IMG/VR virus record: IMGVR_UViG_3300026097_000017
Coordinates: 16,074-80,073 of that record
Reading direction: 5' to 3' (one strand)
From: a virus
DNA: 64,000 bases
Shown here: one piece after another, positions 15,970-47,020 of the stretch
Layout: each line of letters begins with the position of its first letter
How positions within the stretch are numbered: the first letter of the stretch is position 1
Position numbers and translations under genes: made by a program
The notes under the pieces: generated by a model
Databases searched by the model: none
Told to the model about the DNA's origin: nothing
Seen by the model: the letters and a program-made list of their open reading frames with translations, nothing else

Positions 15970-16388
15970 TGCAATTTAGTTTCGCTGACAGTAACATCAT
16001 CAGCATTCGGATTTACCGCATCCTCATAGTAAACAATTATCTGTGTTTGTTGATTAATATACCTTCTCAGCTCACCAACGTTTAACGCCAAGTTTTCATA
16101 ATCTCTGATAGATAATGCGACAAAAGCCAAATCACCATTTAGCTCTTGAAATTCTAAAATGAACTCTTCCAAGTTTTCTTTATTGACAACATGGATTCGA
16201 GTATCAACCAGCTGGACTGGCTTCGGTCTCTCCACTATCGGGACTTGCGTCTTCTCGATTTTGGTCACTACCTGTACTTTCGGTTCTGGCGTCGGGCTGA
16301 ACAGGCTGCAACCAGTCAGGAAGAGCAGAGTCGCCATCGCCACCAGTGTCTTGTTCGATATCACGCCACAATTTTGCCGTTGCACCAT
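15966..16388 (-). CDS. o-spanin (Rz1-like lipoprotein)
   Basis: Lipobox LTGC, Pro-rich segment; overlaps the i-spanin 3' end; true start probably GTG 16364 or ATG 16337. Confidence 0.75.
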   Translation of the reverse strand: MVQRQNCGVISNKTLVAMATLLFLTGCSLFSPTPEPKVQVVTKIEKTQVPIVERPKPVQLVDTRIHVVNKENLEEFILEFQELNGDLAFVALSIRDYENLALNVGELRRYINQQTQIIVYYEDAVNPNADDVTVSETKLQ

Positions 16389-30970: not shown

Positions 30971-31109
30971 TTTCCTTAGATTCTTTGGACCATGAATAGG
31001 TTTCTGTCAAAACTAAAACCGTTCCTGCTATTAGTAGCCAAACATTATTATAAAAGAAACCTGACAAAAAAGCAAGGTGTCCGATAAAAACACCGAGTCT
31101 ATGACTCAT
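30957..31109 (-). CDS. 50-aa membrane microprotein (not in ORF track)
   Basis: MSHRLGVFIGHLAFLSGFFYNNVWLLIAGTVLVLTETYSWSKESKENEDV; fills the gap and overlaps both neighbours. Confidence 0.55.
   Translation of the reverse strand: MSHRLGVFIGHLAFLSGFFYNNVWLLIAGTVLVLTETYSWSKESKENEDV
31047..31075 (-). promoter_or_regulatory. sigma70-type promoter upstream of gp40/gp41
   Basis: TTGCTT-N17-TATAAT. Confidence 0.7.
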
Positions 31110-32151
31110 CTTCAACTACCTCAGGCTCAACTTCCTCATTACCATAAGTGAACTCAGCTTGAGCAGCTAGATCTAGTTGATGCAGTAAGTCTTCAGTAAA
31201 GTATTTTTCAGGATTCTTATAGATCTCTTTACCAAACACTTTCGTACCATCAGGCATTTCATATCGAGTAGAAACCTTCTTGATGATATCATATTTCTCA
31301 GCAAGTTCAAGTAACCCATAATACCGATCAAGTCCATTCGCATAAGACAGGCGAACCTCTACCTGACTATTTTCCTTTGTTAAACGCGACTTATGGAGTT
31401 TAGCTTTGATGATATTGCCTACGATATCTGTACCTTCTTTGTCCTTTTTCTTAGAAAGATAAACGATTGTAGAAGCAGTATATTTTAACCCTGAACCACC
31501 AGACATTTCTTTCATAGGAATATACGAACCGACCACATCATAAACATGGTTGGTTACAAGCAATGGTACTTGAATCTTAGCCAATGCTAGGTTAAGTACA
31601 CGGAACGTTGCCTTGAGTACCTGAGACTTGGTCATGTCTCTAGTTTCTTTACCGTCTGCAGTATCTTCAATCTCTTTAGTCGAAGATAACTGACCCAGAG
31701 AATCTAGCACCATCATCATTGGTTTGCGTGAATCTTCAGGCTGGTTTTTATACGTCTCGATGATTTTTAGCGCAGTATGACGAAACTTCTGAATTGTATC
31801 TGGTTCTGACACCGCAACTCTTGTAGTATCAATACCACGCGACTCCATCATTTCTTTAGTGACTGCAGCCTCAGTATCAAAATAAATGACACCCCCTTCA
31901 GGATTATCCTTTAGAAACTGTTGCATCACGCCAAGAACAAAGAATGTTTTACCAGTCGCTGATTCACCAGCAAATGTTGTAACTTTATTATTAGGAACAC
32001 CACCATAGATTGTTCCTGACAACGCAGCATTTAGGATATATGAACCTGTATCAATATACCCACTAAACTCACCAGACGATTTGCCATCTGCTGCAATATT
32101 AGTATCTTCATCTTTAATTTGTGTGACAATATCACGGAAAAAATCTGACAT
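31099..32151 (-). CDS. uvsX: UvsX RecA-like recombinase
   Basis: 'AGESATGKTF', 'FDTE', 'LDSLG', 'GGSGLKY'. Confidence 0.95.
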   Translation of the reverse strand: MSDFFRDIVTQIKDEDTNIAADGKSSGEFSGYIDTGSYILNAALSGTIYGGVPNNKVTTFAGESATGKTFFVLGVMQQFLKDNPEGGVIYFDTEAAVTKEMMESRGIDTTRVAVSEPDTIQKFRHTALKIIETYKNQPEDSRKPMMMVLDSLGQLSSTKEIEDTADGKETRDMTKSQVLKATFRVLNLALAKIQVPLLVTNHVYDVVGSYIPMKEMSGGSGLKYTASTIVYLSKKKDKEGTDIVGNIIKAKLHKSRLTKENSQVEVRLSYANGLDRYYGLLELAEKYDIIKKVSTRYEMPDGTKVFGKEIYKNPEKYFTEDLLHQLDLAAQAEFTYGNEEVEPEVVEDES

Positions 32152-32939
32152 TAAAAAAATCCTTCAAGTGTTGCTGTTTCTTCCTGACGACGATCTTTGA
32201 GCCGCAGTTCCGCATGCCCTGTAGTTTCTCTAATATACATCGTACAAAGTTCAGGAAACATTTTGGCGATCCTACTGATTGAGTCATACACATACTCTTT
32301 GGTACGCACCTCTTGAAGACCACCTTCTTCTTTGTAATAATTACTTTTCACAGTATAGTTATCTAATCGGCAAAGCACGTCATTCTTGACATACTGACGG
32401 AGACTGTACTCATAGTCCTCACCATGATTTGTCACTCTTGCCAAATAATCATCATGCTCTACGATCACACCGAACATCGATGCAATCACATAGCAGAGTT
32501 TAGTGTAAACACGATCTTTCATAAAGAACGCATTTGAAGCTGCATAGATGCCGAACGTTTTAGCACCAACCTGCTCAGCTTCAGTGAACCCTCTTATTAT
32601 AATCTCTTTTTCCAAATTGTCAATAGGTTCCAGCTTTTTATCATTCTTTCTTTGAACTTCTTGAACGTCATCATCAAACATCATCAAATATGTGCCTTCT
32701 GGATAATACCGTTCAATCCAGTTTCTTTGGGCTCCGATTGTAGGAACACCCTTTACAATATTTTGCCCATAAGGATTATCTTTTAGCGCATTTGAATATG
32801 TTTCAAACTCTTTATCATCAGCCACAAATACAGTGACACGCTCTGGATCAATATTATGGTGTTCAAATACTTTGAACGTCTTTTCTTGAATTGTTTTCGT
32901 ACGCTTATAGGATGGCACTGCAATTTTATAATCAATCAT
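32151..32939 (-). CDS. TET-associated (TAGT/GREB1-like) GT-A glycosyltransferase
   Basis: 'IAVPSYKR', 'QRNWI', 'FDDD', 'GEDYE', 'GGLQ'; adjacent to the TET/JBP gene. Confidence 0.8.
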   Translation of the reverse strand: MIDYKIAVPSYKRTKTIQEKTFKVFEHHNIDPERVTVFVADDKEFETYSNALKDNPYGQNIVKGVPTIGAQRNWIERYYPEGTYLMMFDDDVQEVQRKNDKKLEPIDNLEKEIIIRGFTEAEQVGAKTFGIYAASNAFFMKDRVYTKLCYVIASMFGVIVEHDDYLARVTNHGEDYEYSLRQYVKNDVLCRLDNYTVKSNYYKEEGGLQEVRTKEYVYDSISRIAKMFPELCTMYIRETTGHAELRLKDRRQEETATLEGFF

Positions 32940-34369
32940 TAAAAAAATCCTTCTAGACTCGCTTTTTCTTCAACTGCTTCAGGATGATATTTTGCTAGTG
33001 TATCACGTCCACCGTGATGCTCTAGATATTGATACCATTCTTTAGAATCCCACATTCCTGGACTCACACCGTTCCAGTATGGACGCCATAGTACATGGTG
33101 CTCATTCAAACGACGATCATCAACAAACTGTCTTCGCAGTTTTTCATAATCATAAGAACCAAGCTGTAACATATCCTCGCGGAAATAAAACACCAAAGAC
33201 ATACGGAGGAAATCATCTTCACCTGAATCAGGTGCTTCAATCGGAGTGTTCGCATGAATCACTCGCATATTATCAATCAGCAACAAATCCCCTGGACGAA
33301 CATTGATTGCCGCACGAACTTCAGGAGCAACCAAATAACCACCTTTCCAACTCTTGCCTTCTTTAGTGACAACAGTCAGATTAGAGTATCCCTCATTCAA
33401 AGAACCTGCATCACGATGACTTGCCATTCGTGCATTACGATCTTTAGTTGTAGTATTTACAGTAATTGTAGTCAGCGTAGTATCTTCGCCTATCAGGAAT
33501 TTGTTGTCAATCGAGTCGGCACATTTTTTCTGCAACGCATAACGTTCAGGGAGCATCCGAGCAAACTCTTTATCAAGTTTCCTAGCAAATGGATAGCACT
33601 TTTCAAACTTCTCTAAGTTGTGTTCAGTGTAAGAAGTTGCTCGCCCATAAGGAATCCGAGGATATCTACCATAATACCCAGCGATACCTGACCAAATGGG
33701 AGTCGCATAAGAGGTTGCCGAGATCATAGTCTTAGCAATTTTCAAAGCATACTTAGCTGCGTCATCTACTGACATTTCAGCGAGTCGTTTCATCGCCTCA
33801 TCGAAAAAGCCTGTGTAGTTTTCAAACTCGGCTTCTACCTTCGTACGCAACCAAACACCGCCACGTGTTTCATACTTTTCAGTTTTATGACGCTCTACAA
33901 TTTCTTCTATCGGATCAGAGCCATCGATATTTTGAGGTGAGCCATCAATGTAATAATCAAGAATATCTTGTTGAAAAGGTGTCACCCAATCACGATTACC
34001 TGACTGCTCTGATCTTGGTCCAGCGGCAAGTCCTCGGTTATTAGATTCAACTGCTGCATCAAACAATCCTTCATACGCACCTTTCTGTTCTTCTTCGGTG
34101 AATACGTTTTTACGGAACTTGAATGCAATTTGCTGTTCACCTAGACAACCAATACATTGCCCATTACAATCTGTAGATTTGACTAAATCACAATCAGGTG
34201 GAAGATAAAAATCTGCATCATTGTCGATTAGAATATCGTAATCATTCTCGTCTACATATTTACCGAGAAGATCTTCTTTGTTGTCAGCGAACAAGGCAAT
34301 ATAAACGTCTTGACCTTCGTCACCTTTATACTTCTGCCAAGATCTGCCGCCAATGGTTACTGTTTCCAT
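32939..34369 (-). CDS. TET/JBP-family 2OG-Fe(II) dioxygenase
   Basis: 'TTITVN...HRDAG', 'GGYL..PE', 'PGDLLL', 'IHANTP', 'RMSLVFYFRE' (HxD...H...R). Confidence 0.85.
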   Translation of the reverse strand: METVTIGGRSWQKYKGDEGQDVYIALFADNKEDLLGKYVDENDYDILIDNDADFYLPPDCDLVKSTDCNGQCIGCLGEQQIAFKFRKNVFTEEEQKGAYEGLFDAAVESNNRGLAAGPRSEQSGNRDWVTPFQQDILDYYIDGSPQNIDGSDPIEEIVERHKTEKYETRGGVWLRTKVEAEFENYTGFFDEAMKRLAEMSVDDAAKYALKIAKTMISATSYATPIWSGIAGYYGRYPRIPYGRATSYTEHNLEKFEKCYPFARKLDKEFARMLPERYALQKKCADSIDNKFLIGEDTTLTTITVNTTTKDRNARMASHRDAGSLNEGYSNLTVVTKEGKSWKGGYLVAPEVRAAINVRPGDLLLIDNMRVIHANTPIEAPDSGEDDFLRMSLVFYFREDMLQLGSYDYEKLRRQFVDDRRLNEHHVLWRPYWNGVSPGMWDSKEWYQYLEHHGGRDTLAKYHPEAVEEKASLEGFF

Positions 34370-34392
34370 ATAAGTTCTCCATGTATGCAATC

Positions 34393-34421
34393 ATTATAAC
34401 TTATTTACACAAACTTATCAA
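34393..34421 (-). promoter_or_regulatory. sigma70-type promoter for TET-GT-uvsX
   Basis: TTGATA-N17-TATAAT. Confidence 0.75.
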
Positions 34422-35241
34422 GCAGTTTTTTCTTTTCTACTTTAGGTGGACGTCCACGCTTTTTAGGTTTGTGTTGTTCAATCAACTGTTGAGTTCTCAC
34501 TTTTTTACGCTGTTCCTTCAGCGATATACTAGCAGCTATCACAAGCAGCACTGCTAATGGATCAAATACAAAAATAATAATCAGAATGACAAATCGTACT
34601 GCCTTCTCTAAAACTTGCTGATCAGGATTGTCACCAAATATCAATTCTGCAATGAACGCAAGAGGACCGACTTCCGCTTTAAAAGCTGACACTTGAAGCT
34701 GAATCTGTGCCAACTCGTCTTGAAGCGAGATGATCTTATTGGACGCTTGATTGATGGATTCCTGGATTTTCTCACGTTCCTCAGTCTGACTTTCTCTTGC
34801 CTCAAGTCCCTTAGAAACTGCCCCAAGCTCGATATATCTTTGTAATGCATCATCAAGCTGTTCCAGAATGGCTTCATTCCGCTCGATTTCCCGATTCTCT
34901 CTCTGAATTCTGGTTTCAATCTGTGTCGCTTTGATGGTAGACTCATTTAAACCTGCTCCCTGATCAATATGTGCTTTCGATAAAAATCCAAAGATACCCA
35001 TTGATGTGATAAACATCAACAGCACAACTGCACCAGTGAGATAATATTTCAATGCTCTAGGTGCAACTTCCCAGTTTTGATGCAGCCATGCCGCAGTCAA
35101 AAGTTTACCTGCTTCCAACACGATACCCATGATCACAATCGCAGTAAAACTCGCAGCGAATATAGCTGTCAATCCAATGATTGAGTAATACGCAGCTACA
35201 GTAGCAATAGCAATCGCTGTAATTAAAGTTGCTATAACCAT
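34405..35241 (-). CDS. membrane protein with 4 TMs and a long coiled coil
   Basis: 'AAYYSIIGL', 'LEAGKL', 'TSMGIFGFLSKAH', 'FVFDPLAVLL'; conserved type in aquatic myoviruses. Confidence 0.75.
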   Translation of the reverse strand: MVIATLITAIAIATVAAYYSIIGLTAIFAASFTAIVIMGIVLEAGKLLTAAWLHQNWEVAPRALKYYLTGAVVLLMFITSMGIFGFLSKAHIDQGAGLNESTIKATQIETRIQRENREIERNEAILEQLDDALQRYIELGAVSKGLEARESQTEEREKIQESINQASNKIISLQDELAQIQLQVSAFKAEVGPLAFIAELIFGDNPDQQVLEKAVRFVILIIIFVFDPLAVLLVIAASISLKEQRKKVRTQQLIEQHKPKKRGRPPKVEKKKLLDKFV

Positions 35242-35543
35242 TAACTTTCGCTTCTTGTGATTGCTAAGATATCCTCGATCTTCTCTTCAATAATTTGTTT
35301 ACGTCCTGGCCAATAAATGTATTCTTTGTCAGATGTGTTTAGCAGATTGACTAACAAAGGCATTATCATTTGTTCAACCATTTGTAGTTTTTCGGCAGCA
35401 GATCTTTCTAAAGTATTGCGAACGCTGTCAACAACTTCTTCAATCTTGGTGTCAGTAGCAGCATTGTATTCTGCTTCACTAACTGCACTAAAACCAAAAT
35501 CGTTATCATTTGACAAATATTCCTGTGGTATTTTAATAGCCAT
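35241..35543 (-). CDS. conserved hypothetical protein
   Basis: 'DFGFSAV...PLL.NL....KEYIYWP.R'; start coupled to the gp43 stop. Confidence 0.75.
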   Translation of the reverse strand: MAIKIPQEYLSNDNDFGFSAVSEAEYNAATDTKIEEVVDSVRNTLERSAAEKLQMVEQMIMPLLVNLLNTSDKEYIYWPGRKQIIEEKIEDILAITRSES

Positions 35544-38017
35544 TAGAAAAAGCTCTCCAGTGTACTTTGTTTCTCTACATCCCAACCAATCTTAGAGGTG
35601 ATCACCTTTAGTGGTTCTAGGAATGACTTTTCGAATTGTGTATCATAATCAATATACTTATTTAAGTCAAGCTCTTCTGGCATGTTAGACAGAATAGAGA
35701 TGACATTTTCACCGATACTATTTGGCGTTTTCAAATAACAGAATTTAATTTTCTCGCCTTCTTGGATCGGCTGATATTTTTTAGTCAATCCTTTTTTGTC
35801 AAGAAGATGATTAAACAGCAACGCACCTCTAACATGAATCGGTGTTCCTGATGAGTAGATATCTGAAGAATCAGCATACTTTGCTAATCCTTTAACTCCT
35901 CTCGGGAAAGCCACATCTTCAAACGGCATCTTTTTAAACTTCTCACGGCTATCGGTAACAAACTGATGAAGTAATGATTCGTCGCCCTCCATAATAAGTT
36001 GCAGTGCTTCTTTAATCATTTCACGGCAAGCATATGGAGTTGAAGATTTTACAGCCTCAATACCCATCATCTTGAGTTTCGGTTCATTATACCTCACACC
36101 CTCAGAATCATGAACATTCAGAATGTATCTTTTCTTAGCAGTCCAGATACCTTTATCAGCAATAACTTCTCGAGCCATCACCATCTTGTTCTGATAGGCT
36201 CCCATATAATTCGCAAGCTCTTCATAGGACTCAGTAATAAATTTCTCAAATCTTTCTTCACAAACAGTATTCAAAAAATCGACTGGACTTTTAGGATTGA
36301 ACTTTTTGACCAACTCATCCATGCGGACATAGATAGAATCAGTATCAATCGCAATCACATAATCTTCATCAGTGCCCAGCAACTTGTTCATGTACTGGTT
36401 TACTTTCTTTTCAATCCATCTGATTGAGAGTTGTCCTGAGATGGTGATTGCTTCTCCGAGTTTGACGTCGAAGAATCTGAAGTATTTGTTTCCGATTGCT
36501 CCATAGGCTGAGTTGAGGGAGATTTTTTTTGCCATCTGGATGTTATGGTATTTAGATATTGAGTTGCGTAGGCGAATCTTCTCCTTCTCATCAGCTGTAC
36601 CTTTCTTGCTTTCCAGTTCCTTCTGCGCATTGATCATTTCCTTCTTATAGAAAACACGATCATTGTACATCTTCTGCATCAATTCAGGCAAGAACCCTTG
36701 GAAGTCCTTGCGGAAATAGTGACCATTTGCCGCCAAGCAGTATTCAGTTTCATTAGGATATTGTTCAGTCAAAAGTTTATTAACAGAGGTGTCAATATGT
36801 TTGCCTTCTACCAAAGTATCAGGCGAAATATTATACTGCATCATTAAGTGAGGATACAGACTATTTAGGTCAAAGGAGACAACCCAGTCGTGCATTCCGA
36901 CTTGCGGTTCTTTTACATAAGCACCTTCAATCTGACCATCTTTATCCCGATCCTCCATTTGAGGAACAACAACATTTTTAGAAAGTAGATGGTTATGAAT
37001 GATTGTGTCCCACATCCGAACCTGTGTCATCACATCATTTAAATTCACCTTTGCGTCATACGCAAGAGCAAGCGCAAGTTCAATCAGCTTCAGCTTATCG
37101 TCTAGTTTCTGAACCAACTCAACGTCTTTGATGTTGTATTCAATAAACTTCTGATAGTCTTCTTTGTATAACTGGTGAAGAGAGTTGTATTCAGAATAAT
37201 CAATCTTCTTTTCACCGAGCTCTACGAAAGCGATATTATCCAACCGATATGATTCTTGCTGAGTATAAGTAAACTTCTTATACATTTCAAGATAATCCAA
37301 ACTAACGATGCCGCAAAGAACATACGCATAGTTCTGCCTGTTCATCAGTCTCACGATGCGCTCTTCAACCTGCCCCCAAGGAGAAAGTTTTTTAGCCATG
37401 CGTTCATCAAACTTCTTTTCAATGCGACGATACAGATAAGGAATATCAAAGAACTGAGTGTTCCAGCCTGTGATGATATCGACATCCATTTTCTGCCACA
37501 TATCAAGGAATTTGAGTAACAGATCATTCTCATTATTACAACGAATGTAACGGACATCTTCCCTATGCTGCTTGTATTCGCCTATACCGAGAACCCAATA
37601 AACTCCTTTAAAGTATATCGTGATTGCAGTGATCGGCTCAGCAACGTCCGCAGGATCAGGGAAACCAGACTCAGAGCCAACCTCAATATCAATATTGGCG
37701 ACTCTAATTAAGTTTACATCGTAATCAACTTTAGGATATTGTTCATTGATAAAACAATATTCATATTTGTTAGACCCATAGATTTCAAAGTTTTGTATAT
37801 CACCATATTTGGCAATAAATTCTTTGGCATCTGAAATGGTGCCTTGTTTGACAGGTTCAACAGGAATACCTTTAACTGTTTTGAAGTTAGAAGGTTTGTT
37901 GGTCGGGATGTAGAGTGTTGGTGAGTAAGGAACACGTTCGTGGAACCGCTTTCCGTTGCGATAACCACGAACGTAGATTTTATCACCTCTACGAAGAAAG
38001 TTCGTATAAAATTCCAT
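35543..38017 (-). CDS. 43: family B DNA polymerase (T4 gp43)
   Basis: Exo 'DIEV', 'SFDLNSLYP', 'KISLNSAYG', 'DTDS', 'KKRY'; C-terminal STLESFF. Confidence 0.97.
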   Translation of the reverse strand: MEFYTNFLRRGDKIYVRGYRNGKRFHERVPYSPTLYIPTNKPSNFKTVKGIPVEPVKQGTISDAKEFIAKYGDIQNFEIYGSNKYEYCFINEQYPKVDYDVNLIRVANIDIEVGSESGFPDPADVAEPITAITIYFKGVYWVLGIGEYKQHREDVRYIRCNNENDLLLKFLDMWQKMDVDIITGWNTQFFDIPYLYRRIEKKFDERMAKKLSPWGQVEERIVRLMNRQNYAYVLCGIVSLDYLEMYKKFTYTQQESYRLDNIAFVELGEKKIDYSEYNSLHQLYKEDYQKFIEYNIKDVELVQKLDDKLKLIELALALAYDAKVNLNDVMTQVRMWDTIIHNHLLSKNVVVPQMEDRDKDGQIEGAYVKEPQVGMHDWVVSFDLNSLYPHLMMQYNISPDTLVEGKHIDTSVNKLLTEQYPNETEYCLAANGHYFRKDFQGFLPELMQKMYNDRVFYKKEMINAQKELESKKGTADEKEKIRLRNSISKYHNIQMAKKISLNSAYGAIGNKYFRFFDVKLGEAITISGQLSIRWIEKKVNQYMNKLLGTDEDYVIAIDTDSIYVRMDELVKKFNPKSPVDFLNTVCEERFEKFITESYEELANYMGAYQNKMVMAREVIADKGIWTAKKRYILNVHDSEGVRYNEPKLKMMGIEAVKSSTPYACREMIKEALQLIMEGDESLLHQFVTDSREKFKKMPFEDVAFPRGVKGLAKYADSSDIYSSGTPIHVRGALLFNHLLDKKGLTKKYQPIQEGEKIKFCYLKTPNSIGENVISILSNMPEELDLNKYIDYDTQFEKSFLEPLKVITSKIGWDVEKQSTLESFF

Positions 38018-39771: not shown

Positions 39772-40176
39772 TTACTTTTTCTTGCCAATATTGTACTTGG
39801 CAACTAAATTCCACTCTTCACGTTCCTTGTAAGGAAGGATTTTAATTTGTGAGAGTGGGCTCGTTGGTGTAGCCGTTTTTGACGGATCCACCAAATCAAT
39901 CAACTCCCATTCGGCGAGAAGATTGATTACAGTATTCCGTCTGGCCATGTCATCTTCATTTGGCCAGTTAGTTGGTTTACCATCGAGAGCAAACAGTTCT
40001 TTAAAATGAACTATAAAATATCTGCCTTGCTTGTGTAGAATATGACAAGATTGAAATAATGTCTTATCTTTCTTTGAAGCAATGCCGATGCGAGTCAAAG
40101 TCTCTCGCACTTTCAAAAAGTCATCCTGTTCTTTTAATTTTATCTCAATCATTGAAGACATATCAAAGATTGTCAT
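39772..40176 (-). CDS. regA: RegA translational repressor
   Basis: 'DFLKVRETLTRIGIAS...QSCHILHKQG.YFIVHFKELF.LDG'. Confidence 0.96.
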   Translation of the reverse strand: MTIFDMSSMIEIKLKEQDDFLKVRETLTRIGIASKKDKTLFQSCHILHKQGRYFIVHFKELFALDGKPTNWPNEDDMARRNTVINLLAEWELIDLVDPSKTATPTSPLSQIKILPYKEREEWNLVAKYNIGKKK

Positions 40177-40547
40177 TTCATTCCACCTTTATCAAGTTTT
40201 GTTTTTATTAATTTTATTTGTTCTTTGGTGAGAACTTTCTCAGCGTCACATGCCTTAGTGTAAGAATAATTATAATATTCCATAAGCATTTCTACTGTGG
40301 CAGACTTACTTTTTTTATGCCATCCGAAACGTTTTCTTTTACGAACAGTATTTAGTAAAAACTCATATTGTAATTTATTGTCAATATGGTGGTAGAAATT
40401 CATCTCATTGCCATGATGCACAGTATCAATATGCATTGACATGGCACGATTAACAAGGAAGGAAGAATATTCTTTCTCCGCTTGCTTGTCAGTCATCAAA
40501 TCCTTTTTACTTTCATTGATAGAATTTACAAAATCAAATGGATTCAT
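40173..40547 (-). CDS. 62: clamp loader small subunit (gp62)
   Basis: 'PFDFVNSIN', 'Y..FLVNRAMS', 'RKRKRF'; synteny. Confidence 0.88.
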   Translation of the reverse strand: MNPFDFVNSINESKKDLMTDKQAEKEYSSFLVNRAMSMHIDTVHHGNEMNFYHHIDNKLQYEFLLNTVRKRKRFGWHKKSKSATVEMLMEYYNYSYTKACDAEKVLTKEQIKLIKTKLDKGGMK

Positions 40548-40714
40548 AATCCCAATAATCCCCAACCGTGATTGGCTACAGCATTTAGGATAATAAAAAT
40601 CCCAACAAAAAGCTCGAACACCACAATAATAGTACGAACGATTGCAACTCTGTCAGCTTTACTGTCATCATCATATGCCTTAGATCCTAATGCTTTAGCC
40701 CAAATATTCCACAT
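40544..40714 (-). CDS. small membrane protein
   Basis: 'MWNIWAKALGSKA...AD.VA..RT' followed by a TM. Confidence 0.7.
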   Translation of the reverse strand: MWNIWAKALGSKAYDDDSKADRVAIVRTIIVVFELFVGIFIILNAVANHGWGLLGL

Positions 40715-41652
40715 TATTGAAACGCACATTCTGACATAATTTCAGTCAGACATGCTACGAGATTAACTTCTTGATCCGCAACGAATGCAGACTTGTAAGA
40801 ATACTCAGCGACTATCAAGACCAAAGATGGTACTGATTCAGGTTTCATGTAATCAGTTGCGGAGTCATATAGTTTACGATACATCATGACAGGATCATTG
40901 TCAATATTTTCCACAACCCATTTACGAACTTCTTTGAAGTTCCTTTCTTTCATGTGTTGTATTAGACTTTTGATAGATACATCTACTAAATTTACTAGAA
41001 TACCTGTGTCTATCTTTCCTGACACTGAATACCGCTGTAATTCATTCAGCACCCGACGGAAGTCAGGGAAGTGCTTCATGATTACCTGAGCAACAACCTT
41101 TTCTTCATACTCAATATGTTCTTGAGAAAGAATCCCATGAATACGCTTCATCAGCTGAGCTGCTAATTTTGGCTTTTCATTGTTAGGAATCTTGAACTCT
41201 ATTACTGAGCACCTTGAATGGAGAGGAGATATAATGCGGTTAGCAAAATTACAAGTAAGTATAAACCCACAATTATTACTAAACTCCTCCATAAAGTTGC
41301 GAAGAGCAGGCTGAGTAGATTGGGGATTGAGATAATCAGCCTCATCAAGGATGACATACTTACGACCACCATCAAAACTGACAGTGCTAGCAAAATTACG
41401 AATGTCATTCCGAAGAGTATCGATGTTTCCATTCATTGAACCATTGATAATAATATAATCACAACCGAGTTCTTCTAGCATGGCGCGAGCAACTGTAGTT
41501 TTGCCCATACCTGCTCCACCTGTGAGAAGAAGGTTAGGAACGTTTCCCTGTTTAATGAACTCTTTAAACGTTTCCTTCATCTCAGGTGAGAGAATCGTAT
41601 CATCCACTGTGCGTGGGCGATACTTCTCTACCCATAAAAAATCATCTCTCAT
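40714..41652 (-). CDS. 44: clamp loader large subunit (gp44)
   Basis: 'LWVEKYRP', 'GMGKTT', 'LDEADY', 'SRC'. Confidence 0.96.
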   Translation of the reverse strand: MRDDFLWVEKYRPRTVDDTILSPEMKETFKEFIKQGNVPNLLLTGGAGMGKTTVARAMLEELGCDYIIINGSMNGNIDTLRNDIRNFASTVSFDGGRKYVILDEADYLNPQSTQPALRNFMEEFSNNCGFILTCNFANRIISPLHSRCSVIEFKIPNNEKPKLAAQLMKRIHGILSQEHIEYEEKVVAQVIMKHFPDFRRVLNELQRYSVSGKIDTGILVNLVDVSIKSLIQHMKERNFKEVRKWVVENIDNDPVMMYRKLYDSATDYMKPESVPSLVLIVAEYSYKSAFVADQEVNLVACLTEIMSECAFQ

Positions 41653-41669
41653 AATATAGACCTCAAAAA

Positions 41670-42341
41670 TTAAGAATTATACTGGGAATTAGATTCTAAA
41701 GCAATCCAGTATTCTAAATTTGCATCAACTGATTTAAAATGCGAGATACCCTTTGAAGAGATCTGTACATTATAATCACCGTTGATCAGTTTGAGGTTTT
41801 CAGTTTTAAAGATCATGCGGAACTCAGCATCAGTTTCACCAACTGTCATGGAGAATGTGTCACTTGAGTCATTCTTAACATCAAGAGCAGTCAACTTGAT
41901 AGTTTCACCATCACCCACTACAGCGATTTCAGGCAAACTCATCACACCACAAGCACGTTGTACTTTCTGCAAAATATCATGACTCAGCTGGAACTGAATC
42001 TCTGCCTCAGGGAAGTTGGGACTCTTCTCTGGTGGCTTAGTGATGATAGATTCATCAGCATAACCATAGCGAGTCTTTTGCCCATTGTTATCTACAATCT
42101 CTAGACTAGTGTCATTCACATTCACTTCTGGCTCTTCGAACAAGTCAAGAACAGAAATGAAACGATTTAGTTCGTAGATACCAAAGTTGCGTTCAAAGTT
42201 CTCATCAACCTGCGCTTTGGCTAGAATATTTTTTCTAGGAGAAACTGTTGCCAGCGTATTTCCTTCTTTGAACATCATACTAGAATTAATAGTAGAAAAG
42301 TTCTTCAGGATGTTAATTGTATTTTCACTAATTTTCATCAT
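41670..42341 (-). CDS. 45: sliding clamp (gp45)
   Basis: 'LKNFSTINS', 'FGIYEL..F', 'YWIALE'; synteny. Confidence 0.93.
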   Translation of the reverse strand: MMKISENTINILKNFSTINSSMMFKEGNTLATVSPRKNILAKAQVDENFERNFGIYELNRFISVLDLFEEPEVNVNDTSLEIVDNNGQKTRYGYADESIITKPPEKSPNFPEAEIQFQLSHDILQKVQRACGVMSLPEIAVVGDGETIKLTALDVKNDSSDTFSMTVGETDAEFRMIFKTENLKLINGDYNVQISSKGISHFKSVDANLEYWIALESNSQYNS

Positions 42342-42345
42342 TACC

Positions 42346-43203
42346 TCACTTCTTCATTTTTTCAATCATATTTTGATCAGCTGTAGGAGATGCCCCAACA
42401 GCAGCCAATGCTTGTAGTGTTCCACCAAAAATGTACATACCTACATGCTTCAGTTCCATCCAAGGCAGATACCAAACTTTGGAATCTGATTCCCTCGCAT
42501 ATTGACAGAACATGTAATCTTCAGAAAGATAACGTTTAGTTTTGTCATCAATCAATGCTTGGAAGTACATCATGATTTCACGAGAGCCATCAAAGTTTTT
42601 CGTACGAACATGGTCAGGTTTGTATGAATAGTCTGGCCATTTTTCAGCAAACCGATTAAACACCTTCTTCTTAATCATCATGAATCCTGTACCACCCTCA
42701 AGCACTTCGACAGGTTCATTCAGTTTAATTTCAGTAGTTCCTGGAACTGGGTTGAAAACATAATCCCCAACAAAAGCATCTAGTGCTGAGGGATTGTCAT
42801 CAGCATACCCCTTATCGACAGCTTTAGCAACCTTTTCCCATGCGATAGTTTTCTTAGGATATGGACCACAGAGAACATCATATTCATTATTCTCATCTTC
42901 ATCATCCATCATTGCTGCCATGGTTAGGATATAGTTCGGATCAAATCCGATGTCACTATCAATAAACATGAGATGAGTACAGTCAGAACGAATGAACTCA
43001 TCAACCAAATAGTTGCGAGCACGTGTAATCAGTGACTCATTAAACAAGTAGAAAAACCGCACATCAATACCATACTTGGCTGCCAACGTAGCAAGTTCTG
43101 TACACGATTTAGTGTAAACCCCAGCACATTGTCCACCATACATTGGTGTCGCAACGAAGATTTTTTTCTTTCTCAACTCATCAACAGAAATTTCAACTTC
43201 CAT
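42346..43203 (-). CDS. GT-A-fold glycosyltransferase-like protein
   Basis: 'VATPMYGG', 'ESLITRARN', 'FIDSDI', 'GTGFM', 'LSEDY.FC'. Confidence 0.75.
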   Translation of the reverse strand: MEVEISVDELRKKKIFVATPMYGGQCAGVYTKSCTELATLAAKYGIDVRFFYLFNESLITRARNYLVDEFIRSDCTHLMFIDSDIGFDPNYILTMAAMMDDEDENNEYDVLCGPYPKKTIAWEKVAKAVDKGYADDNPSALDAFVGDYVFNPVPGTTEIKLNEPVEVLEGGTGFMMIKKKVFNRFAEKWPDYSYKPDHVRTKNFDGSREIMMYFQALIDDKTKRYLSEDYMFCQYARESDSKVWYLPWMELKHVGMYIFGGTLQALAAVGASPTADQNMIEKMKK

Positions 43204-45426: not shown

Positions 45427-46469
45427 TCGAGATCTAGTGCCTCATGGTATAAGTTTATCAATAATCCTTCTAACTTTTTCTGATTAGAAGTTTGCACACC
45501 GCTGACATATTTCTTCAAAATAGTCATCGTATCTTCAGCTTCATTTACCAAATCATCATCATTGGTCTGATCAATATTCATATGGTCGTCCACCACTGCA
45601 ACATCATAAACTCCACTACGATATAACTTATCAAGGAAAATGTCAAACGCTGTGGGATCTTTTTTTGTTCGGACGATAACTTTCACAAAACACCCTTCAT
45701 ACAAATCGTATTCATGCTTTTGTGGTTTGCTGTCATCATAAATGATTTTGTAGAATAACCGATGAGGATTACGAACTTCCACCAAGTCTCCTGTATCAGT
45801 GTCAAAAATATGAAACCCACGCCAGTCATTATAGTCTGACCATGTCATTTCATAAGGAGAGCCAAGATAAGTGAGATTGTCTCGAGACGATTTGTGATGA
45901 AAATGACCAGAAAATACTCTGTCGAATTTACTGAATACATTAGTTTGTAGTCCATGATGATTTACCGATCCTCTATACATTTCAAACCCTTGCACTTCTA
46001 AATGACCAAATGCATACTTAGCATCAGTCTTGTTCAAAAGCTCAAAAGTTTCTTCTTCATTTTCAGGGCAGATCCAAGGAATCATCATCAATTTAGTATT
46101 GTCAATCGTGACTTCCTGTGGATCCATTACTAGATTAAAACCATACTCAGATTTAGAATACAGTTCACGCAAAGCATTTACATGTATCGTGTTCTTGTAA
46201 TATGAGTCATGATTTCCCACAATAAAATGCGCTTCGATACCACGTTCATGGATCGGAAGCATCATATCATCTTCTAAATTTCTGGCAGTAACATAATTGA
46301 TTTGTTTTCTTTTGTCAACTAGATCACCAAGATGAATTAAATGTTTAATATTATGCTTGTCAAGATATGGGAAAAAGAACTCATGGTAGAACTTCTTCAT
46401 ATGATTCGCAAACACAATATTATCATTGCGCACACCAAAGTGTGTATCAGTAATTAAAGCAACTTTCAC
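45423..46469 (-). CDS. 47: recombination nuclease gp47 (Mre11/SbcD-like)
   Basis: 'DTHFG', 'GD', 'GNHD', 'SGHFH'. Confidence 0.95.
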   Translation of the reverse strand: MKVALITDTHFGVRNDNIVFANHMKKFYHEFFFPYLDKHNIKHLIHLGDLVDKRKQINYVTARNLEDDMMLPIHERGIEAHFIVGNHDSYYKNTIHVNALRELYSKSEYGFNLVMDPQEVTIDNTKLMMIPWICPENEEETFELLNKTDAKYAFGHLEVQGFEMYRGSVNHHGLQTNVFSKFDRVFSGHFHHKSSRDNLTYLGSPYEMTWSDYNDWRGFHIFDTDTGDLVEVRNPHRLFYKIIYDDSKPQKHEYDLYEGCFVKVIVRTKKDPTAFDIFLDKLYRSGVYDVAVVDDHMNIDQTNDDDLVNEAEDTMTILKKYVSGVQTSNQKKLEGLLINLYHEALDLE

Positions 46470-47020
46470 TCTGCGTCATCCTCGATGAAGTTTTCTATTC
46501 CTACTTTCTTTTTCGCCTTTTTACGCTTTTCAAGATTAGACTCAAATGTTACCATAAAGTCATCCATATATTCCTGAGCATAATCATTATGAAATGGGCG
46601 ATTCATTTCTGGAGTTGCTTCTTCAGCCTGAACCATCTCCATAATTGTAATATTCTTAGTGGAACTGTATTTGACGTAGAGCTGTTTCTTTTCTTTTTGA
46701 ATCCTGCGTAAAAATGCATAATAGATTATCTGCGTGAAATACGCAAAAGGATTACTACTTTTGTCAGGATTAAAATTATTGATGTATTGAACACAGTTCT
46801 CCACACCATCAGAGATCATATCTTCTCTAAATTGATAGCTTATGAAGTTTGGCTTGGTGGATAATCTTCGAGCGATCATCAAAAAACATTCACCCACATA
46901 ATTGGGAATGATTGGTTTTTCCTTGCCTTCTTTTTCAGCCTGTTTTACTTTTTCTCGATACTCGATGAGTGAGTTGAGAAACTCTTTGTTGTTGATATAA
47001 TGAGTTGATTTTCGTGCCAC
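46466..47020 (-). CDS. 55: late sigma factor gp55
   Basis: 'HYINNKEF', 'NFNPDKSSNPFAYFTQI.YYAFLRRIQKEKKQ'. Confidence 0.95.
   Translation of the reverse strand: MARKSTHYINNKEFLNSLIEYREKVKQAEKEGKEKPIIPNYVGECFLMIARRLSTKPNFISYQFREDMISDGVENCVQYINNFNPDKSSNPFAYFTQIIYYAFLRRIQKEKKQLYVKYSSTKNITIMEMVQAEEATPEMNRPFHNDYAQEYMDDFMVTFESNLEKRKKAKKKVGIENFIEDDAE

Follow-up and report, generated by a model that had tools for sequence, protein, structure and literature searches.

A polymerase-type C-terminal tail on a TET/JBP dioxygenase and its partner glycosyltransferase points to probable clamp-tethered DNA hypermodification in a marine T4-like phage

Within an 80-kb viral contig of the IMG/VR collection (record IMGVR_UViG_3300026097_000017), which derives from a T4-like phage and represents an estimated ~44% of a genome, we analyzed a stretch of 64,000 nucleotides (positions 16,074 to 80,073 of the record; hereafter the window) that encodes a TET/JBP-type (5mYOX) Fe(II)/2-oxoglutarate DNA dioxygenase and, adjoining it, a TET-associated glycosyltransferase (TAGT). 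Both enzymes end in a short peptide, EEKASLEGFF in the dioxygenase and EETATLEGFF in the TAGT, that resembles the C-terminus of the phage's own DNA polymerase, EKQSTLESFF; translation of the open reading frames (ORFs) confirmed all three tails, which an earlier note on this DNA had singled out. We consider it reasonably likely that a marine T4-like phage uses the two enzymes as a cassette for hypermodifying its DNA after replication, with these tails tethering them to the gp45 sliding clamp and with thymine as the likely substrate.

The tail is rare in the contig. The motif [ST]L[EDGQSNA]xF[FL], with no more than two further residues before the C-terminus, was found in three of 480 ORFs, namely those of the TET, the TAGT and the polymerase, against a chance expectation of ~0.04 ORFs based on amino-acid composition. 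In the AlphaFold model of the dioxygenase the protein finishes in a short helix, where the confidence score (predicted local distance difference test, pLDDT) declines to ~58, and in the model of the TAGT the score is 52-58 over residues 251-262, following a well-folded core. Low-confidence tails with a short helix behind folded cores are what would be expected, at the level of predicted models, of a short linear docking motif.

Relatives of the phage were sought via proteins, because a megablast search of the region against cultured phages matched only 122 bases of the polymerase. The nearest cultured relatives by TET protein (41-66% identity) are phage C48C1 (Kyanoviridae), Stenotrophomonas phage DLP6 and Caulobacter phage Cr30. 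Conservation of the motif in orthologues, a check set by the earlier note, was evident for both enzymes: [ST]L[ED]xFF followed by 0-2 residues ends ~115 of the 120 nearest TET homologues (66-92% identity), in which the preceding linker varies, and ~115 of 120 TAGT homologues. The tail is also mostly kept in distant full-length TET representatives (35-55% identity). Among 25 distinct TET gene ends the leucine is encoded by all six of its codons and the serine by both codon families, while GAA and GAG, and TTT and TTC, are used about equally. As the residues are constant while the codons vary and the downstream genes differ, it follows that selection acts on the peptide and not on the DNA. Among natural variants in marine and saltern contigs from four metagenome studies, 37 of the 40 listed are synonymous and none falls in either tail.

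The TET stop and the TAGT start overlap as TAATG, as previously described, and so do the TAGT stop and the uvsX start, both junctions reading GAAGGATTTTTTTAATG. The DNA match reported for the ends of the TET and TAGT genes was also reproduced, with the two ends identical over 17 bases, and it raises the question of whether GAAGGA-TTTTTTT-AATG is maintained as a Shine-Dalgarno sequence plus spacer, or as the recombination joint of a mobile cassette, with the peptide itself being without function. Beyond the identity of the two window gene ends, the spacing of GAAGGA, which precedes the following ATG by eight bases, is compatible with this idea. However, orthologues keep the residues while their codons vary near saturation, many of them lack the purine-rich element (as in genes encoding LESFF, LEDFF or LEAFF), the downstream genes and spacings differ, and the polymerase motif is written in different DNA. 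We therefore regard a DNA-level origin as extremely improbable, and in light of the codon analysis it is refuted for practical purposes, in both its Shine-Dalgarno and its cassette-joint form. The 17-base identity is a by-product of the shared peptide and the shared TAATG overlap and carries no separate signal.

The tail probably addresses the sliding clamp, because the end of the polymerase aligns with the gp45-binding epitope of T4 gp43 (window GWDVEKQSTLESFF vs. T4 gp43 GMDYEEKASLDFLFG), because gp45 and its loader are present, and because the polymerase tail, QxxLxxFF, has the exact spacing of a PIP box. The C-terminal tails of T4 gp43, gp55 and gp33 are interchangeable gp45-binding epitopes (PMC2988020), and both the RB69 polymerase peptide on its clamp and the LDFLF loop of T4 ligase have been crystallized in the hydrophobic pocket of gp45 (PMC6212786). 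These epitopes (PMC2988020, PMC6212786, PMC7892883) are similar to the window tails in being hydrophobic-acidic peptides at the extreme C-terminus behind a variable linker, and in being common to the polymerase and unrelated proteins of one phage; indeed, T4 gp43 ends in EEKASLDFLFG and the window TET in EEKASLEGFF, with EEKASL common to both. They differ in their core, which is L-D-F-L-F in T4/RB69 and L-E-x-F-F (PIP-box spacing) in the window, and in their carriers, which are replication and transcription proteins in T4/RB69 but DNA-modifying enzymes, with putative binding, in our phage. The similar tail that had been noted on gp55 is present as well: the window protein, a late sigma factor by its match to phrog_234, ends in KKKVGIENFIEDDAE, and T4 gp55 ends in SPSLDFLYEAND (SLDFLYEAND for comparison).

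The gp45 and clamp loader are encoded by the same phage as the tailed enzymes, and the window gp45 could be matched end to end to the RB69/T4 gp45 structures 1B77/1B8H and 1CZD (E=1e-19). Furthermore, the same motif is found on the cognate polymerase in the window, in C48C1, in DLP6 and in 12 of 13 related loci, as would be anticipated of a clamp ligand. From this combined analysis we think it quite probable that the tails of TET and TAGT bind gp45.

In the complete phage C48C1 the motif occurs only on the polymerase, the TET and a Dam-type N6-adenine methyltransferase, and in the complete phage DLP6 only on the polymerase, the TET and the TAGT. Across 45 related IMG/VR loci it ends 72 of 1676 ORFs (~0.12 expected), and all 72 are recognizable genes for TET, polymerase, TAGT, GT-B glycosyltransferase, GNAT or HNH proteins. 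When the ORFs of related loci were clustered and the copies with a tail counted per family, the tail was present in 47/50 TET, 12/13 polymerase, 6/7 TAGT, 4/4 GT-B glycosyltransferase, 5/5 GNAT type a and 3/3 HNH endonuclease sequences, and in 13/19 of GNAT type b, the other six of which end in SLEKF. In the cluster of amino acid:DNA transferases (AADTs), which includes a 364-residue phrog_3271 protein, 16/28 fit the pattern, and GLE[EA]F variants account for the majority of the remaining tails shown. By comparison, the tail was found in 0/27 glutamine amidotransferases (GATases), 1/21 P-loop kinases and none of the sugar-nucleotide enzymes, uvsX, gp41, gp44, gp45, gp46 or gp47. By this distribution the tail is a mark of the polymerase and of those enzymes whose expected substrate is DNA in polymeric form. 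As a negative control, no tail is present on the TET homologues from three phages whose genomes have no gp45, namely Nonlabens phage P12024L, Pelagibacter phage HTVC112P and Synechococcus phage S-CBWM1. Cr30 has a divergent polymerase tail, ..DLSSLFD, and its TAGT ends in ..DLSKLF, so that in this phage the two tails vary together.

Several tails outside the window cassette merit description. The C48C1 Dam-type methyltransferase (L004:3995-4879, PF02086 E=1e-23), encoded just downstream of the polymerase, ends in ..GESTLDAFFG, the C48C1 polymerase ending in ..ATLEDFFG, and is a candidate clamp-tethered enzyme. A 160-residue HNH endonuclease (PF13392) encoded two genes downstream of TET ends in ..STLEEFLA (L028:8887-9375, L029:4451-4939, L046:6544-7023); a clamp-type tail on such a nuclease was unexpected, with homing and modification-dependent cutting being possibilities. 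Other TET/JBP clades have conserved tails of their own: many ~300-residue enzymes end in R/K-x-G-D-P-L-Y, and the S-CBWM1-like clade (~450 residues) ends in ..TN[YW][HS]G[TK] (carriers of other-clade tails include P0324, P0325, P0344, P0377, P0380 and others; P0329, P0338, P0375; and L078:520-1956). It is feasible that these distinct tails might address distinct partners, for example ParB-like activators.

A selected peptide need not address the clamp, and it could instead be a degradation or stability tag, or a dock for a helicase, a single-stranded DNA-binding protein, a ParB-like protein or a packaging protein. Hydrophobic C-termini can be degrons, ParB-like genes are present in some related cassettes, and ParB activates other phage thymine dioxygenases (PMC13229309). 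On the other hand, the identical motif ends the polymerase at the place where T4/RB69 gp43 binds gp45 (PMC2988020, PMC6212786), and there has the PIP-box spacing QxxLxxFF; the tail occurs only together with a gp45 gene; no ParB gene adjoins the window cassette; and a degron common to the polymerase and eight enzyme families is a less economical explanation than one docking site. We consequently judge a partner other than the clamp to be unlikely.

Some observations do weigh against binding of the clamp, or against its importance. The motif LExFF differs from the T4 LDFLF, and the window clamp is distant from T4/RB69 gp45, such that the case for a like function is one of position and analogy. 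The TET tail of Cr30, ..GATLF, is a poor match, and the 5-hydroxymethyluracil (5hmU) DNA kinase, another enzyme that has to work on DNA, is without the tail in 20 of 21 cases. In addition, the interaction of the T4 alpha-glucosyltransferase (alpha-GT) with gp45 is not the main determinant of modification level (PMC13216743), a result that implies that tethering is possibly of minor consequence.

The identities assigned to the two enzymes in the earlier note are upheld by Pfam matches above the curated cut-offs. The dioxygenase scored 53.6 bits against PF12851 (Tet_JBP; cut-off 34.9, E=2e-14) and comprises an N-terminal region of ~240 residues that has no Pfam match, followed by the catalytic domain. 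Its start was placed at the ATG at 34366, which is preceded by GGAG and coincides with the start of the homologues; the TTG at 34390 is only the start of the longest ORF. The residues of the HxD...H iron triad and the 2-oxoglutarate-binding arginine (H317, D319, H371 and R388) are invariant among 49 aligned homologues. The AlphaFold model (pLDDT 86) has the TET-type double-stranded beta-helix, its top matches in the PDB being NgTET1, CcTet, TET2 and CMD1 (E 6e-9 to 1e-6). The TAGT, whose gene adjoins that of the TET, scored 61.9 bits against PF20691 (cut-off 27.5), and the aspartates of its acidic DxD-type metal/nucleotide-sugar site (D89, D90 and D91) are invariant in the alignment of homologues. 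Its model (pLDDT 88) matches the GT-A enzymes TarS, AvpGT and RmlT. The Pfam scan of the window glycosyltransferase gave no match to the T4 alpha-GT family PF11440, PF20691 being the sole return, and the search with the window TAGT did not reach the TAGT homologues of T-even phages at E<=1e-3.

The substrate of the dioxygenase is likely to be thymine. We draw this conclusion from three lines of evidence: the absence of a C5-methyltransferase, the 5hmU-pathway neighbors of orthologous enzymes, and the existence of published thymine dioxygenases. The search for a C5-methyltransferase (PF00145) was negative for the contig, for the complete C48C1, DLP6 and Cr30 and for two further long records, and no ThyA-like protein (PF00303) was found on the contig, in agreement with the earlier statement that the window has neither a C5-methyltransferase nor a dNMP hydroxymethylase. 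PF00303 was found only in Cr30, and ThyX in DLP6 and one IMG/VR record; these are probably ordinary thymidylate synthases. In many related loci the genes next to orthologous TETs (62-75% identity) encode P-loop nucleotide kinase3, AADT, GATase and a weakly ParB-like protein. Work from 2026 characterized phage thymine dioxygenases that have such partners, and a C5-methyltransferase accompanies only ~6% of mined 5mYOX pathways (PMC13229309). The guess in the earlier note that thymine may be the substrate is strengthened by these data, and if it is correct the product would be glycosylated 5hmU, an analogue of base J.

The orthologous TET also occurs in larger islands (L016:5354-11979 and similarly L012, L013, L018, L019 and L025-L037), the order being GATase, a 291-residue protein of unknown function, GNAT, a 425-residue weakly ParB-like protein, AADT, TET and P-loop kinase3, and the AADTs in these islands have GLEEFF-type tails. 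The islands point to thymidine hypermodification of the amino-acid or polyamine type in T4-like marine phages.

It is also conceivable that the clamp tether is real and that the substrate is 5-methylcytosine (5mC), made by a methyltransferase of the host or of the unsequenced half of the genome, in which case the product would be a glycosylated 5-hydroxymethylcytosine (5hmC) as in published C5-methyltransferase/TET/glycosyltransferase pathways. Phage TETs of clades A and B oxidize 5mC, and their glycosyltransferases act on 5hmC (PMC8256090). Some thymine dioxygenases oxidize 5mC too (PMC13229309), and the best structural matches of the window enzyme are 5mC enzymes, there being no JBP catalytic-domain structure among the matches listed. 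Against this, PF00145 is lacking not only from the contig but also from the three complete orthologue-bearing relatives and the two further records, published 5mC pathways place the methyltransferase beside the TET, orthologues at 62-75% identity adjoin 5hmU-specific kinase and AADT genes, and the ~6% frequency of C5-methyltransferases in mined 5mYOX pathways (PMC13229309) is low. On balance we find 5mC an improbable substrate. Nevertheless, the assignment of thymine has to contend with the fact that phage 5mYOX enzymes can act on both thymine and 5mC (PMC8256090, PMC13229309), with the contig being only ~44% complete, such that a C5-methyltransferase may be encoded elsewhere in this phage, and with the window having a glycosyltransferase only and no 5hmU-specific partner gene.

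In the mechanism that we propose, the TET/JBP enzyme would hydroxylate thymine in phage DNA to 5hmU and the GT-A glycosyltransferase would add a sugar to that hydroxyl, producing a base-J-like nucleobase. The flexible tail, [ST]-L-E-G-F-F, would anchor both TET and TAGT on gp45 by insertion into its hydrophobic pocket, with the consequence that only clamp-loaded, i.e., replicating, phage DNA would be efficiently oxidized and glycosylated. The placement of both enzymes on one clamp trimer right behind the fork, as the earlier note envisaged, is only a picture, and clamps left on completed DNA would be equally suitable.

The question posed by post-replicative hypermodification is how the enzymes reach phage DNA fast enough for it to be protected from host nucleases, and why phages modify after replication has been called a mystery by the authors of PMC13229309. 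A clamp-docking tail would be a simple answer, in that clamps mark fresh phage DNA and tailed enzymes would concentrate there. A broader and decidedly more tentative proposal, one that we would not yet favor, is that [ST]LExFF is a portable address label by which the DNA-writing toolkit of this T4-like clade is hung on gp45, with the clamp an obligatory activator of the dioxygenases. The carriers would then comprise at least eight unrelated enzyme types (TET/JBP, GT-A, GT-B, AADT, two GNAT types, Dam methyltransferase and HNH nuclease). If this were true, the clamp would do for these enzymes what the ParB-like activator does for other phage thymine dioxygenases, hypermodification would be confined to replicating phage DNA and the host chromosome spared, and the inactivity of many clade C 5mYOX enzymes when expressed alone and C-terminally tagged in Escherichia coli (PMC8256090, PMC13229309) would be accounted for. 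A clamp-docking tail would also yield a practical rule for silent metagenomic 5mYOX, glycosyltransferase and AADT enzymes, which is to co-express the cognate clamp and loader and leave the C-terminus untagged. In searches of T4-like phage genomes, moreover, the tail serves as a one-line signature by which to recognize new DNA-acting enzymes.

There is a eukaryotic precedent for bringing a DNA-modifying enzyme to newly replicated DNA by a short clamp-binding motif, as the PIP box of DNMT1 binds PCNA. DNMT1 differs from the window enzymes in that it performs maintenance methylation in eukaryotes, its motif is internal and near the N-terminus, and its chemistry is unrelated. Base J of kinetoplastids (JBP1/2 plus JGT) is similar in its chemistry to that proposed for the window, thymine to 5hmU to glycosylation, and differs in being eukaryotic and site-restricted, with JBP targeted by a J-binding or SNF2 domain and not by a clamp motif. 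Among phages, the closest comparison in terms of the clamp is the T4 alpha-GT, which PMC13216743 (citing Sommer, 2004) describes as co-purifying with gp45; it is likewise a phage DNA glycosyltransferase associated with a T4-type clamp, suggesting replication-coupled glycosylation. In contrast to the TAGT, it belongs to family PF11440, ends in ..FKEQFDIITK with no polymerase-like tail, and acts on 5hmC that was incorporated before polymerization. In terms of chemistry the counterparts are the phage thymine dioxygenases of 5mYOX clades C1/C2 (PMC13229309, PMC8256090, bioRxiv 10.1101/2023.12.21.572611), which share with the window the combination of TET/JBP and glycosyltransferase, the lack of a neighboring C5-methyltransferase, a post-replicative mode of action and, in the window orthologues, pairing with GATase, kinase, AADT and ParB-like genes. 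They differ in having ParB as activator or tether, with clamp genes mentioned as neighbors only and no clamp tail described, and the window enzyme has the extra N-terminal region of ~240 residues. The chemistry is thus of a published class, and the clamp epitope is textbook T4 biology. Our literature searches returned no report of a clamp tether on TET/JBP, TAGT or AADT enzymes, clamp genes being mentioned only as neighbors, and a polymerase-type C-terminal tail on TET/JBP, TAGT, GT-B, AADT, GNAT, Dam and HNH enzymes appears to be undescribed.

Table 1. Features of the cassette and its surroundings, in window coordinates.
Feature	Position	Strand	Evidence
TET/JBP-type (5mYOX) Fe(II)/2-oxoglutarate DNA dioxygenase, 475 aa	32939..34366	-	Pfam PF12851; phrog_24024 E=7e-150
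Dioxygenase tail EEKASLEGFF, putative gp45-binding peptide	32942..32971	-	Sequence, homologues, codon analysis
TAGT, 262 aa, GT-A fold	32151..32939	-	Pfam PF20691 E=1e-16
TAGT tail EETATLEGFF, putative gp45-binding peptide	32154..32183	-	Sequence, homologues
Family B DNA polymerase (gp43 homologue), 824 aa	35543..38017	-	Pfam DNA_pol_B + DNA_pol_B_exo1
Polymerase tail EKQSTLESFF (QxxLxxFF, PIP-box-like)	35546..35575	-	Same position as gp45-binding tail of T4 gp43
Sigma-70-like promoter match TTGATA-17-TATAAT	34393..34421	-	11/12 consensus positions, just upstream of TET
gp45 sliding clamp homologue, proposed docking platform	41670..42341	-	Pfam gp45-slide_C E=1.9e-14; phrog_223 E=3.9e-78
Clamp-loader genes, gp44 and gp62 homologues	40173..41652	-	gp44 40714-41652 phrog_168 E=1e-122; gp62 40173-40565 phrog_225 E=3e-39
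gp55 late sigma factor	46466..47020	-	phrog_234 E=8e-59; hydrophobic-acidic tail VGIENFIEDDAE
uvsX recombinase, downstream neighbor of TAGT	31099..32151	-	phrog_97 E=1e-83; no clamp tail, ends EVEPEVVEDES

The genes on the minus strand are arranged in the order gp55, gp47, gp46, peptide deformylase, a 285-residue glycosyltransferase-like gene, gp45, gp44, gp62, regA, small genes, gp43, two small ORFs, TET, TAGT, uvsX and a gp41-like helicase (Table 1). The cassette had been placed between gp43 and uvsX; TAGT adjoins uvsX, and on the other side the two small ORFs intervene, so that the pair is close to the polymerase gene but not immediately beside it. Several studies contributed metagenomes, of marine, marine-plankton and saltern origin, in which the stretch is nearly intact, no RNA data set being listed among those that contain it; at joints in the metagenome contigs the sides are short (26-36 letters).

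A promoter for the cassette had also been proposed, and there is a corresponding match, TTGATA-17-TATAAT, upstream of TET. The sigma-70 matches reported here are to the consensus pattern only, and 27 such sites were found in the region where ~20 are expected. A perfect match (TTGACA-16-TATAAT, 12/12) is located at 32596-32623 on the minus strand, within the TAGT coding sequence and ~450 bases upstream of the uvsX start, and could be an internal uvsX promoter, as judged from the pattern.

The 285-residue protein (42346-43203, minus strand), whose gene separates gp45 from that of the peptide deformylase, gave a match to phrog_1574 (E=8e-59) and, in Pfam, only weak GT2/Anp1-like matches. It occupies the same position in many related loci, is without the clamp tail, and may be a second glycosyltransferase. 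Outside the window, ~45 kb from TET on its own contig, a 149-residue ParB_N protein (PF02195 E=7e-9; L055:1318-1767) is encoded among MazG-like genes and a GT8-like gene, and is not adjacent to the cassette. The two ORFs that separate the polymerase from TET, 34405-35241 (278 residues) and 35241-35585 (114 residues), both on the minus strand, had no family match above threshold in the Pfam and phrog searches. By eye, hydrophobic segments are apparent towards both termini of the 278-residue product, along with a central part resembling a coiled coil and a basic tail.

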